Below, in pieces: positions 52,801 through 55,800 of a DNA stretch of 64,000 nt; the stretch's first letter is position 1; every line of letters begins with the position of its first letter. The stretch comes from Escherichia coli (GTDB taxonomy: Bacteria > Pseudomonadota > Gammaproteobacteria > Enterobacterales > Enterobacteriaceae), in NCBI RefSeq assembly GCF_050920415.1, contig NZ_CP169309.1. The stretch is one strand, 5' to 3'. A program made the position numbers.

Positions 52801-55800
52801 GCACCAGAACGCAGAACGTCAGCAGAGAAAGTGATTCGTGCGGCTGGTAGTTTACCTCTCCGCCAGTATGTTTCGCTTTTATGGCTACGCCAAAGATACC
52901 ATCTTCTGCTGTGAAATATGCCTCCTGAGCAATAATACTCTCGATATGGTCTGGCGTAACGCGCGGCGCGGCTAAACCTTTAGCCTGAATTTCAGATTCA
53001 ATGTCTTTGTCACTCATAGTCTAATCTCACCTTAAAAAAATGCCCGGCGAACCGGGCGAACTGGAAGCAATGAGTTATGCCTTCCGTGGCTGTACTGGTT
53101 TACAGCATGAAGCCATCGCAATGGCGTCCTGCTGTAAAAAGGGCGGTGATAGTCCTTCAAGGGAAACCATCACCGCCAAGCCCCTGGAACTTCTGGCATC
53201 ACGGTCCTTAGGCGTGATTCTGGCGTGGCATGCAGGATTCGAACCTGCGACCGACCGCTTAGAAGGCGGTTGCTCTGTCCAACTGAGCTAATGCCACAAC
53301 GCTGAGAGCACTTAGCCTGTTAAGGCGCCACACTTTGTCGCGGCTCCATAAATGCTCTCATCGTTGCACCCTCGTCTCTTCCGAGGCGTCACACCGAATC
53401 GCCGGGATGGTGAATCCCCGTGCGCGGAATAAAACCGCTCGACTTGCACATTCCGGCTACCTGGTTCGTTTGCCCGAGCAAGGGAGGGTGCCCATTAAAC
53501 GTATCCAGACCGCTATCGGCGCATGTGCCATACGCCGTACTGCTCAAAATAAAATCTCACTCCACCTGTTCAATTTAACGACAAGCCAGTCAGGTTAATA
53601 ACAGGAATGCACTCTCTGCTTACCTGAAAGGTAATAATTCGTGCGTTAAATGTCAACTGTCTACGATAAATAAATCATATGTGGTTAAATTGGTAATAAT
53701 TTAATTGCGTACGGAGTCATTGATATGTGCATGGGTAGCTCACCATCAGTGCCTGCAACACCAGAAGTTCAGGCAGCACCACAGGAGCAGGATGCCGCCG
53801 TTGTTGATGCCCGCGACGAAGAAACACGTCGCCGTCGCGCTGCTGCTGGTCGTAGTTCTACGCTGCTTACCGGTTCTCAGGGTGACACATCAACCGCTAA
53901 TACCAGCGGTAAAACGCTGCTTGGTCAGTAACCGGAGTCATTGAAATGGCGGAAACAACTAAAGAGCGATTGAACAAACAGTTCGCACAACTTGAAAGCG
54001 AGCGTCAGTCGTTCGAGCCGCACTGGCGCGAGTTGAGTGATTACATCAACCCGCGTGGTTCCCGCTTTCTGACTTCTGAGGTCAACCGTAACGATCGACG
54101 CAATACACGCATTATTGATTCGACCGGGACTATGGCGGCGCGCACTCTCGCCAGCGGCATGATGTCAGGCATCACAAGCCCCGCGCGTCCGTGGTTTCGC
54201 CTGGCTACGCCAGATCCTGAAATGATGGATTATGGCCCTGTTAAGTTGTGGCTTGAGGCGGTGCAGAACCGCATGAACGATATGTTCAATAAGTCGAATC
54301 TCTATCAGTCGCTGCCGCAGTTATACGGAAGCCTCGGCACATACAGCACTGGTGCAATGGCGGTACTGGAGGATGACGATGACATCATTCGCACAATGCC
54401 ATTCCCGATAGGCAGTTACTACCTGGCTAACTCACCTCGTGGCAGTGTGGACACCTGTTTTCGCAAGTTCTCTATGACTGTTCGTCAGCTTGTTCAGGAG
54501 TTCGGGCTAAATAACGTCAGCGAATCCGTAAAAAGCATGTGGGAAAGCGGCACCTACGAGAAGTGGATTGAAGTGATGCATTCGGTTTACCCGAACATTG
54601 ACCGCGATACATCGAAGCTGGATAGCAAGAACAAGCCATTCAAATCGGTTTATTACGAGGTTGGCGGTGATAACGACAAGTTGTTGCGTGAGTCAGGATT
54701 CGATGAGTTTCCAATTATGGCTCCGCGCTGGGAAGTTAACGGCGAAGATGTTTATGGATCATCATGCCCGGGTATGCTGGCGCTTGGACCTGTTAAGGCA
54801 TTGCAGCTTCTCCAGAAGCGCAAGTCGCAGTTGATTGATAAAGCCACCAATCCGCCGATGATTGCTCCGACTTCCCTCAAGAATCAGCGCGCCTCCCTTC
54901 TTCCTGGCGACATCACGTATATCGATCAGATTACTGGTCAGGATGGTTTCAGGCCTGCTTATCTGGTTAACCCCAGTACAGCAGATCTGGTGGCAGACAT
55001 TCAGGACACTCGTCAAATCATTAACAGTGCCTACTTTGTCGATCTGTTCATGATGTTGCAGAACATCAATACCCGTTCGATGCCTGTTGAAGCGGTGATC
55101 GAAATGAAAGAAGAAAAACTTCTGATGTTGGGGCCGGTTCTGGAGCGTCTGAACGACGAATGTCTTAATCCTCTCATTGACCGCGCTTTCTCGATGATGG
55201 TGCGTAAAAACATGCTGCCGCCCCCGCCTGACGCGATGGAAGGTATGCCCCTGAAGGTCGAATACATTTCCGTCATGGCTCAGGCGCAGAAGTCTATCGG
55301 CCTGTCCAGTCTGGCGTCTACGGTCAACTTCATTGGTCAACTTGCGCAAGCGAAACCAGAAGCTCTCGACAAACTCAACGTTGATCAGGCAATCGATGCA
55401 TTCGCTGATATGTCCGGAGTGTCTCCAACCGTCATTGTTCCGCAGGAACAGGTTGAGCAGGCTCGCCAGCAACGGGCACAGCAACAACAGCAGCAACAAA
55501 TGATGGAGATGGGGATGGCGGCGGCACAGGGTGCCAAGACGCTAAGCGAAGCTAAAACTTCGGATCCGAGTGTTTTGTCAGCTATGGCGAATGCAGTTAG
55601 TGGTCAGGGTGGGCAATCACAATGACAGATTACGAAGACGATCAACTGAAAGAAGAAAACGCCCGTAAGCAACGTGACATGGCACAACGTGAAATTGATG
55701 ACATTCGCTTTGTCATGAGCAGTGAACAGGGGCGTCGCGTTGTCTGGTCTGTGCTGGAGAAAGGCCGGGTGTTTTCCGCTATCTCTCCGATGGATGCTAT

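Follow-up and report, generated by a model that had tools for sequence, protein, structure and literature searches.

The DNA studied was a 64,000-nt stretch of Escherichia coli (GCF_050920415.1, contig NZ_CP169309.1), which is referred to as the window below. Between terL and the portal gene, a non-coding stretch, a tRNA and a gp49-like gene were found to run opposite to the structural genes, in agreement with an earlier note on this DNA. Read along the minus strand, the unit was arranged in the order of promoter/operator, RNA motif, tRNA-Arg(UCU), terminator T1, hairpin, terminator T2 and Acb4-family gene. The features of the locus were as follows.

53664–53708, no strand assigned: almost invariant AT-rich segment upstream of the gp3 homologue, holding a GGTAA half-site (alignment with relatives)
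~53628–53663, minus strand: predicted sigma-70-like promoter, overlapped by the operator (scan and reading by eye)
53619–53635, no strand assigned: repressor operator TTACC-N5-GGTAA, the counterpart of the repressor site annotated in epsilon15
53540–53619, minus strand: poorly conserved 5' leader, from the predicted transcription start to helix P1 (comparison with relatives)
53367–53539, minus strand: core of the conserved structured RNA (covariance-model match of 141 bits, E ~1e-40; the sole copy in the window)
53298–53366, minus strand: P6, the closing hairpin of the motif, long and variable (CAACG...CGUUG, then UGG), which abuts the tRNA 5' end (inverted-repeat scan, relatives)
53221–53297, minus strand: tRNA-Arg(UCU), with CCA encoded (ARAGORN, Rfam)
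53133–53177, minus strand: terminator T1, a 14-bp stem plus CUUUUUACAG (hairpin scan; flanks like a lambdoid leader terminator)
53099–53138, minus strand: 18-bp hairpin between T1 and T2 (hairpin scan)
53032–53057, minus strand: terminator T2, GCCCGG-UUCG-CCGGGC then U7, with the stem at 53057 to 53042 (sequence and scan)
52646–53017, minus strand: 123-aa Acb4-family gene (PF13876, Phage_gp49_66), a putative anti-CBASS nucleotide sponge (Pfam)
52606–52625, no strand assigned: hairpin T3, flanked by terL and the Acb4-family gene, with a minus-strand terminator-like T-run after the gene (scan; a phiV10 terminator is annotated at the homologous position)

The identity of the tRNA was confirmed by ARAGORN, which called the anticodon as tct, and by the Rfam tRNA model (RF00005), which gave 72.2 bits against a gathering score of 29. 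AGA and AGG together made up 11.5% of the Arg codons in the prophage part and 2.8% in the host part; because of this difference, which is based on small counts, the supplementation of rare codons suggested in the earlier note is plausible. A degenerate second tRNA, which had been considered for 53298–53704, was not seen, since ARAGORN and Rfam found one tRNA only, at 53221–53297. The terminator hairpin described directly after the tRNA was present, but the range given for it (53124–53160) was offset: the stem in fact spans 53177 to 53142 and the U-tract ~53141 to 53133, and the former range partly overlaps the second hairpin (53099–53138). That this terminator is the tRNA's own now appears wrong, its flanks resembling by eye, unaligned, the leader terminators of lambdoid phages that have no tRNA. 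The end of T2 was ~15 nt upstream of the start codon of the Acb4-family gene; the ribosome-binding site followed the U-run immediately, and the gap was too small for a promoter.

The gene itself, previously described as gp49/Sf6-gp66-like, matched PF13876 (Phage_gp49_66) over profile positions 1–82 of 82, with 121.3 bits against a cut-off of 27 (E 2.4e-35). This Pfam family corresponds to Acb4 (bioRxiv 10.1101/2024.12.30.630793). The downstream gene thus belongs by its domain to the Acb4 anti-CBASS sponge family, and nucleotide binding by its product is putative. The 123-aa protein and Acb4 (SPO1 gp1.3, PDB 9E4W) have the PF13876 domain in common, but the similarity was only distant, with a weak match of E 0.007 over 42 residues. 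In a Klebsiella relative, a PF11195 Tad2-like gene was found in the same slot.

Parts of the block were already known piecemeal from the annotation of phiV10, epsilon15 and the O157 typing phages, in which the terL–portal locus has the gene order, the tRNA-Arg, the terminators and the repressor site in common with the window; the new result is the non-coding stretch. The window was 98.9% identical to phiV10 over 52560–53960. The RNA motif was left unannotated in the records of these phages, and in phiV10 a probably spurious ORF was annotated antisense to the tRNA. In epsilon15 the motif locus was a deletion remnant only, next to a stretch labelled as an 'RNaseIII' site: deletion between two copies of TTCCCTTGATGCT had removed the motif, the tRNA and half of T1, and had spared T2 and the gene.

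The operator copy reported earlier could be located at 53620–53634 (TTACCTGAAAGGTAA), where it aligned with the epsilon15 feature labelled 'repressor'. Allowing one mismatch at most, TTACC-N5-GGTAA occurred at 13 sites in the window (7 of them exact) against 1.05 expected, and none of 100 shuffles reached 13. As a repeated palindrome homologous to an annotated repressor site, it qualifies by sequence as an operator of the epsilon15 type. An IHF site of epsilon15 is annotated just beside the operator, outside the AT-rich block (53664–53708). Two promoter candidates were obtained. The first, read by eye, consists of TTGACA (53656 to 53651), a 17-nt spacer and TACCTT (53633 to 53628), and overlaps the operator; the second, from the scan, consists of TAGACA (53663 to 53658), 18 nt and AATTAT (53639 to 53634). 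TTGAC[A/C] was kept in epsilon15, phiV10 and a Klebsiella relative. From its sequence, the region 53298–53704 could be recognized as the place where a minus-strand transcription unit has its control elements and its leader; the prophage repressor should shut this unit off. The idea that this stretch carries a promoter and 'a small RNA' gained support from the predicted promoter and from the conserved RNA motif, which starts ~85 nt downstream of it.

The absence of a credible ORF from 53298–53704 was also borne out. Mechanical ORFs of 45–87 aa only were present, and no frame was kept across the relatives: the mEp460 ORF and the window ORF had 26 aa in common before their frames diverged, and the antisense frames were open in 24, 18 and 26 of 66 sequences. 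The core lengths of the relatives fell into all classes modulo 3 (17/22/27), and no 3-base periodicity of substitutions was observed in the motif relatives. A broken or remnant ORF was ruled out by the unkept frames, the lengths that are not multiples of three and the lack of codon periodicity. The Rfam covariance search proposed in the earlier note was run, and no Rfam 15 family matched the motif, either in the window (E ≤ 10) or in four other carriers (E ≤ 0.1). The motif was unannotated in every genome inspected, and searches of the full-text literature under its invariant sequences, the P1 ban operon, RprA-like phage RNAs and processive antitermination gave no description of it.

Comparison of the carriers indicated that a real, conserved and structured RNA is very probably encoded here as part of an early transcript. 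In the window, its core was composed of P1 (53537 to 53517), the P2 domain, an invariant 19-mer (53461 to 53443), P3, P4 (~53418 to 53404) and P5 (53386 to 53370), with a pseudoknot between CACC (53412 to 53409) and GGUG (53395 to 53392). The hairpin CGGGATGGTGAATCCCCG, previously quoted at ~53401–53420, is real and corresponds to helix P4. The length of the motif was estimated at about 155–180 nt, or at 155–240 nt where it was set against put RNA (core 147–179 nt), and a P6-type CAAC...GUUGUGG hairpin was present in 66 of 89 distinct loci. Five helices, one of which is the pseudoknot, were supported by covariation, and these were accompanied by the 19-mer, the variable 3' hairpin and, in all, about 60 invariant positions. 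In the alignment, 94.8% of the cells made a standard pair, and compensatory changes were found at 12 of 27 pairs, compared with 2–6 pairs in slid controls; a pseudoknot pair covaried from C-G to A-U. None of 500 shuffles reached the observed value on four of five measures, and 9 of 500 did so on the fifth. The covariance model scored 101–164 bits on 73 full copies. Mimicry of a T-loop or of the 16S anti-SD by the P4 loop, considered by eye, was dropped, because only CACC was conserved in the loop and it covaried with GGUG.

It was found that the motif occurred in 1839 of 5426 complete E. coli genomes, about a third, and the invariant 19-mer in 24 Enterobacterales species representatives. Identity to unannotated DNA was ~82% in lambdoid phages and ~79% in P1/P7, and the overall conservation was 70–83% in unrelated phage types whose flanks failed to align. 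The motif was always on the transcribed strand of repressor-controlled transcripts in unrelated temperate phages (lambda-like, P1 and epsilon15-like). In lambdoid carriers it lay directly after cI and PL, with one copy per phage and never at PR; in P1/P7 it lay in the C1-controlled ban operon. A CI-type repressor gene on the same strand ended ~120–150 nt upstream in 66 of 96 loci, and promoters were predicted just upstream of the motif copies. The downstream genes fell into 29 unrelated clusters. Because the carriers share no phage protein, any partner has to be supplied by the host. P1 withstands CRISPRi knock-down of trnI and ban; since P1 tolerates knock-down of the operon and epsilon15 has deleted the motif, it was regarded as an accessory element.

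As the best explanation overall, we tentatively propose a cis-acting leader RNA in a repressor-controlled unit, which would help the polymerase through downstream terminators. When repression is lifted, minus-strand transcription would start at the operator-overlapped promoter, and the nascent RNA would fold and act in cis on the host polymerase or on termination, with a put-like logic and an unrelated fold. In the window, this would lead to read-through of T1 and T2 into the anti-defence gene, and in lambdoid phages without a visible N gene, to read-through of the leader terminator into the early-left genes. In addition, the motif RNA would be set free as a discrete species by RNase P cleavage at the tRNA. 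Several observations were counted for such a mechanism besides the conservation, the covariation and the gap after T2 that is too small for a promoter. The motif started at ~+50 to +90 from the early promoter, before the first gene, and in 81 of 116 loci a terminator-like hairpin followed, likewise before the first gene, at a median of 288 nt downstream. No N gene was annotated in Ayreon, mEp460 or Stx2a_1447, and inspection of the annotation and of ORFs revealed no ORF between PL and the leader terminator. Counted against it were the lack of sequence or model similarity to put, the single copy at PL, the absence of a nearby terminator from the P1-type copies and from one further locus (L073), the loss of the motif from epsilon15, which yet keeps T2 and the gene, the tolerated knock-down in P1, the tandem copies at one locus, and a canonical rrn-type boxA after the motif at another (L092). 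This was the only such locus in the boxA/nut search, and it indicates that another antitermination signal can coexist with the motif. Taken by itself, antitermination is possible rather than probable as the mechanism of the motif.

The put RNA of HK022 (putL/putR) is a cis-acting processive antiterminator that needs no phage protein (PMC9378689). Like put, the motif follows an early PL of N-less lambdoid phages on the transcribed strand and precedes terminators; its highly conserved nucleotides would fit contact with the host RNA polymerase, as for put (PMC9378689). Nevertheless, put is ~70 nt long, consists of two stem-loops and starts at +3, whereas the motif, with 155–240 nt, combines a multi-branch domain with a pseudoknot and starts at ~+50 to +90; moreover, each phage has a single motif copy, for which terminator resistance is putative. 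In the HK022 immunity region, neither BLAST nor motif searches nor the covariance model (E ≤ 10) gave a match to the motif, and put is itself unrelated in sequence.

A stable trans-acting RNA, cut from the early transcript by RNase P at the tRNA and by RNase E elsewhere, is possible to much the same degree. Such an RNA would bind or sequester, through its fold, a host factor or signal for take-over or counter-defence, as one of several accessory modules. P1 and P6 would be protective hairpins flanking it, and its neighbours point in the same direction. A same-strand tRNA adjoined the motif in 47 of 132 loci (most copies had none): tRNA-Arg in the window, abutting the motif, and tRNA-Ile in P1, 14 nt after which the motif begins. 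Other processed RNAs adjoined as well, namely, in 31 of 116 loci, an RprA-like seed with terminator and, in P1, a dicF-like region. In comparison with RprA (RF00034), related lambdoid loci ended the leader with GCUGUGUGUAGUCUUUGCCC plus a terminator. This sequence corresponds to the seed and 3' end of E. coli RprA; at one locus (L009), the Rfam RprA match was below the gathering score (50 versus 70 bits). The RprA-like seed GCUGUGUGUAGUC with terminator was absent from the window, where T1 had no seed. These stable-RNA neighbours (tRNAs, RprA-like sRNA and dicF-like region) made a processed trans-acting RNA fit equally well; it and the cis leader are about equally likely. The anti-defence sponges in the downstream slot (Acb4-family in the window, Tad2-like in Klebsiella), the dispensability of the motif in epsilon15 and P1, its tandem duplicate in one locus (L030) and its presence after the lysis genes of a virulent Klebsiella phage also agree with trans action. 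However, the very regular position, between an early promoter (50–90 nt upstream) and the first gene, is typical of a cis leader, and most copies had no terminator of their own directly after P5/P6. Stable RNAs encoded with phage tRNAs or processed from early-left operons are represented by T4 species 1 and 2 RNAs and by DicF in Qin. The motif resembled these in being a non-coding RNA among tRNAs or in repressor-controlled early-left operons, and would likewise be released by processing, but showed no sequence relationship to them. DicF is small and simple and acts by base-pairing; the motif instead has a complex conserved fold.

A riboswitch-like sensor, in which the junctions and the pseudoknot would form a ligand pocket, is unlikely. 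RNAalifold gave a long-range 11-bp alternative pairing, 100% complementary and perfectly conserved, that overlaps the 3' strand of P1, so that the P1 hairpin and the long-range helix, being mutually exclusive, would switch the early transcript upon binding of a metabolite or an immune second messenger. The aptamer-like build of the motif, with invariant unpaired nucleotides and variable peripheral stems, its site in a 5' leader and the nucleotide-signal sponge genes downstream in two lineages would be in keeping with this. But the alternative helix never varied and thus gave no evidence for or against itself; in the few variants of the 19-mer, a G-to-A change of the fifth base broke one pair of the helix, and a second scan, anchored on P1, found three kinds of variants only, none of them informative for the GCACAU:AUGUGC pairing. 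Neither a coherent gene set nor a constant expression platform was found beside the core, which alone was aptamer-like: the downstream genes were unrelated, and the terminator lay 200–300 nt off, and in the window an entire tRNA separates it from the core.

It is very improbable that the motif is a novel self-cleaving ribozyme or processing element by which the polycistronic early RNA is cut beside tRNAs: the size, the pseudoknot, the invariant positions, the phage context and the tRNA adjacency resemble those of known small ribozymes, but no similarity to any Rfam ribozyme was found and most copies lay away from tRNAs. That the stretch is nothing special, promoter DNA with a decayed tRNA or a broken ORF conserved through recent kinship, is hardly credible: phiV10-like phages were indeed 97–99% identical at the block and small ORFs were annotated over the motif in mEp460 and Ayreon, but the conservation extended to unrelated phage types with unalignable flanks, five helices showed compensatory changes, no reading frame was kept and no tRNA-like match lay in the stretch.

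Conservation of this kind, with 19 invariant bases running, five covarying helices and exchange among phages unrelated in their proteins, is almost certainly functional. The motif opens the early programme of textbook phages and phages of medical relevance, namely P1, Stx2-converting phages and O157 typing phages. The chances appear even that it represents a new fold-based class of phage RNA, either a put-independent reprogrammer of the polymerase or an early decoy or sponge allied with the adjacent counter-defence cargo. If RNA polymerase is what the motif modifies, RNA-only antitermination would have a second, unrelated solution, and early-left expression in N-less lambdoid phages would be explained; if the motif acts as a decoy, the counter-defence tools of phages would be extended by an RNA. 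Either way, annotators gain a new feature, and a "non-coding spacer" in thousands of genomes becomes testable.

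The window carries the E. coli chromosomal markers ryfA and sroE, and an epsilon15/phiV10-like (Uetakevirus) prophage begins at ∼38 kb and continues onwards. Phage phiV10 and O157 typing phages 9 and 10 matched the stretch 52560-53960 at 98.9% identity, and their records show terS, terL, a minus-strand 'Sf6 gp66-like' gene, tRNA-Arg, a small gp3 homologue and the portal. At the corresponding place, the epsilon15 record gives a minus-strand terminator, an 'RNaseIII' site, an IHF site and a repressor site. The earlier note, which had described a minus-strand block with a tRNA-Arg(UCU), a gp49/Sf6-gp66-like gene and a ∼400-bp non-coding stretch (53298-53704), was correct; most of the block is already annotated in related phages. 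Its tRNA and gene were recovered by ARAGORN, Rfam and Pfam as listed here.

Features of the terL-portal block
53656->53651 and 53633->53628 (-), candidate promoter 1: perfect TTGACA, 17 nt, TACCTT inside the operator
Ending at the operator edge (-), candidate promoter 2 from an automatic scan: TAGACA, 18 nt, AATTAT
53620-53634, operator copy
53221-53297 (-), tRNA-Arg(tct), ARAGORN call, Rfam 72 bits
53177->53142 (-), T1, terminator-like hairpin
Within 53034-53141 (-), 18-bp hairpin between T1 and T2
53057->53042 (-), T2, terminator-like hairpin
Minus strand, 123-aa ORF, Pfam PF13876, E 2.4e-35
52625->52606 (-), T3, terminator-like hairpin

Part of the non-coding stretch belongs to a widespread family of structured RNAs that is missing from Rfam and from the papers that could be searched, and that heads early transcripts of unrelated temperate enterobacterial phages. 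When 53298-53704 was used as BLAST query, its tRNA-proximal 241 nt were ∼82% identical to unannotated DNA of lambdoid phages (cdtI, mEp460, Ayreon, 2H10, Stx2c and Stx2a phages). A second search added P1, P7 and relatives, the virulent Klebsiella phage SopranoGao and a phage listed for Stenotrophomonas. The motif lay on the locally transcribed strand in every case. It was located just beyond cI, the cI terminator and the predicted PL promoter in lambdoid phages, between tRNA-Ile and ban within the C1-controlled ban operon in phage P1, and upstream of tRNA-Arg, as in the window, in a Klebsiella Uetakevirus-like phage. Of 5426 complete E. coli genomes, 1839 contained it, and it was unannotated in the 50 matches listed. 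An invariant 19-mer (GGTAGCCGGAATGTGCAAG) had matches in >120 viral contigs and in 24 species representatives, which were Enterobacterales throughout save two metagenome bins. One viral contig (L030) held two same-strand copies, at 3997-4154 and 4804-4959, ∼800 nt apart.

By hand, a secondary structure was proposed on an alignment of 35 diverse copies.

Elements of the proposed fold
P1: hairpin CGGCRUAU / GGCAC / AUGYGCCG
P2: helix closing a variable multi-branch domain, with the invariant 19-mer next
P3: variable hairpin after the 19-mer
P4: 5-bp hairpin with loop UCACC
Pseudoknot: CACC of the P4 loop with a downstream GGUG
P5: CCUCG / GAAGAGA / CGAGG

In this alignment, standard pairs filled 94.8% of cells and compensatory changes occurred at 12 of the 27 pairs. 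Shuffles reached the observed value in 0/500 trials on four of five measures and in 9/500 on the fifth, and controls in which the 3' partners were shifted by 1-3 columns had 2-6 compensatory pairs only. The pseudoknot pair covaried from C-G to A-U in the mEp460 group, and 199 of 200 shuffles folded less well than the window sequence (z = -2.8). The covariance model built from the alignment found exactly one copy in the window (53367-53539 (-), 141 bits), a 40-bit remnant only in epsilon15 and no copy in HK022. The existence and fold of the motif are well supported, which bears out the suggestion that the stretch might hold a small RNA. RNAalifold favoured a long-range helix competing with P1 (GCACAU:AUGUGC, CCG:CGG, GC:GC); its complementarity was perfect in all copies with zero variation, so this helix is no more than a possible alternative.

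A long variable hairpin, P6 (CAAC...GUUGUGG), was found 3' of P5 in 66 of 89 distinct loci, and in the window its end coincides exactly with the 5' end of the tRNA. Beyond P6, the leaders of L004 (mEp460), L010, L028, L106 and L120 resemble chains of hairpin modules connected at GUUGUGG / CCACAAC. The P6 3' strand (GUUG) shares bases with the 5' strand of the hairpin that follows (GUUGUGGUG...CACCACAAC) or, in the window, with the acceptor stem of the tRNA. T-arm-like hairpins followed by CACCA close several of these modules.

A protein-coding reading of the motif was rejected. Core lengths (147-179 nt) represented all residues mod 3, no reading frame was retained across the copies in sense or antisense, the conserved blocks showed no 3-base periodicity, and the annotated mEp460 ORF shared 26 residues with the window ORF before the frames diverged. 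The same results uphold the absence of a credible ORF in 53298-53704 and speak against a disrupted ORF. The annotated 83-aa phiV10p04 (L001 2672-2923, equal to window 53040-53291 (+)), which reads antisense across both the tRNA-Arg gene and T1, is almost certainly not a real gene, and the same seems true of mEp460_037 and one Ayreon ORF over the motif. A tRNA reading, including the proposed degenerate second tRNA, was discarded because tRNA finders detected tRNA-Arg alone. The suggested covariance search of Rfam 15 recovered this tRNA and gave no match to the motif in the window or in four other carriers, and the conserved motif sequences were not found in a full-text literature search. In mEp460 (L004 5347-5535), isrK and C4 antisense RNA scored above the Rfam threshold near an antirepressor gene; this pair is the known P1/P7-type immI module within a lambdoid phage.

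The operator TTACC-N5-GGTAA was strongly over-represented, with 13 sites in the window against 1.05 expected: exact copies at 44264, 44326, 45038, 47369, 47431, 50455 and 53620, and six one-mismatch sites. The copy noticed earlier in the non-coding stretch was confirmed at 53620-53634 and aligns with the annotated epsilon15 repressor site. Since it overlaps or abuts the predicted minus-strand promoter (the earlier note had named a tRNA promoter as one possible content of the stretch), the repressor should block minus-strand initiation under either candidate, and P1 would start ∼85 nt into the predicted transcript. TTGAC[A/C] is kept in epsilon15, phiV10 and the Klebsiella relative. Copies also occur outside the immunity region, immediately ahead of terS (50455, 50473) and ahead of gp3/portal, so the repressor may act directly on the structural-gene region. 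A ∼45-nt block upstream of the gp3 homologue (53664-53708, CGATAAATAAATCATATGTGGTTAAATTGGTAATAATTTAATTGC), containing a GGTAA half-site, is nearly invariant across E. coli, Salmonella and Klebsiella phages while its flanks diverge, and could be a late promoter or protein-binding site.

Downstream of the predicted promoter the order is motif, P6, tRNA, T1, hairpin, T2 and the 123-aa gene. The U-run of T2 runs directly into the ribosome-binding site of this gene, leaving no room for a separate promoter. A terminator near the tRNA had been proposed and is real, but the positions of T1, T2, T3 and the additional 18-bp hairpin place it somewhat differently, at 53177->53142 (-). The T1 flanks GGCGG...CCGCC (CUUUUUACA) resemble, by eye, lambdoid leader terminators, which makes T1 look like a component of a shared leader cassette rather than the tRNA's own terminator. 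The region 53034-53141 (-), in which the 18-bp hairpin precedes T2, could form a small RNA of its own or serve as an attenuator for the Acb4-family gene; its sole Rfam similarity, to RyhB, was at chance level (E 2.5).

In other phages the slot of the tRNA is filled by other hairpin modules. A same-strand tRNA adjoined the motif in 47 of 132 loci; epsilon15-like phages have tRNA-Arg on its downstream side, P1-like phages tRNA-Ile on its upstream side. AGA and AGG together accounted for 11.5% of the Arg codons of the prophage part against 2.8% for the host part, which lends some support to codon supplementation, though the counts are small.

The motif locus of epsilon15 (L002 2203-2292; listed together with L168) is a remnant. 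In epsilon15, only P1 and the start of P2 are left, fused to the 3' half of T1, and the junction sits in TTCCCTTGATGCT, a sequence that fuller relatives carry twice, once in the P2 domain and once in the T1 loop. Motif, P6, tRNA and half of T1 were therefore probably lost by recombination between the two copies.

In many lambdoid phages the early-left leader closes with GCUGUGUGUAGUCUUUGCCC and a terminator, 200-900 nt after the motif; this end is almost the same as the seed and 3' end of RprA, a host sRNA. Such ends occurred in 31 of 116 loci (L009 2631-2750; L100, L105, L011, L113, L121 and others); the L009 segment scored 50 bits with Rfam RprA, below the gathering score (E 0.001). No description of phage-borne RprA mimics was found in the literature searched.

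The motif might act in cis on transcription, with a logic like that of the HK022 put RNA (PMC9378689), although the fold of put is unrelated. Consistent with this are its fixed position just after repressor-controlled promoters and the terminators preceding the first gene; a terminator-like hairpin was present in 81 of 116 loci, at a median of 288 nt after the 19-mer. In the lambdoid carriers N is not annotated and the interval from PL to the leader terminator contains no ORF, and carriers have no phage protein in common, so any partner must be a host component. However, each phage has a single copy, P1-type copies lack a nearby terminator, L030 has a tandem duplicate, and in one lambdoid contig (L092) a perfect rrn-type boxA (TGCTCTTTAACAA), with a hairpin ahead of it, follows ∼129 nt after the 19-mer. 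Moreover, phage P1 tolerates knock-down of trnI and ban (PMC10695390), and epsilon15 has kept T2 and the gene despite its deletion. A processed, stable, trans-acting RNA would fit about equally well, given neighbours such as tRNAs, the RprA-like ends and a dicF-like region in phage P1. A riboswitch is less likely, since the genes that follow are unrelated to one another and a constant expression platform is absent.

PF13876, the family of the 123-aa protein, corresponds to Acb4, a family of nucleotide sponges directed against CBASS (bioRxiv 10.1101/2024.12.30.630793), and the single PDB match of the protein was the solved Acb4 structure 9E4W (E 0.007). In the Klebsiella relative (L012 3011-3532, phage ST512-KPC3phi13.3), the same slot holds a Tad2-like gene (PF11195, Thoeris anti-defence); fusions of the two families are frequent (bioRxiv 10.1101/2025.07.12.664507). 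Judged from these gene families, the terL-portal site appears to exchange anti-defence cargo, and 'early, repressor-controlled counter-defence and accessory unit' is probably a better label for the block than 'plain moron'.
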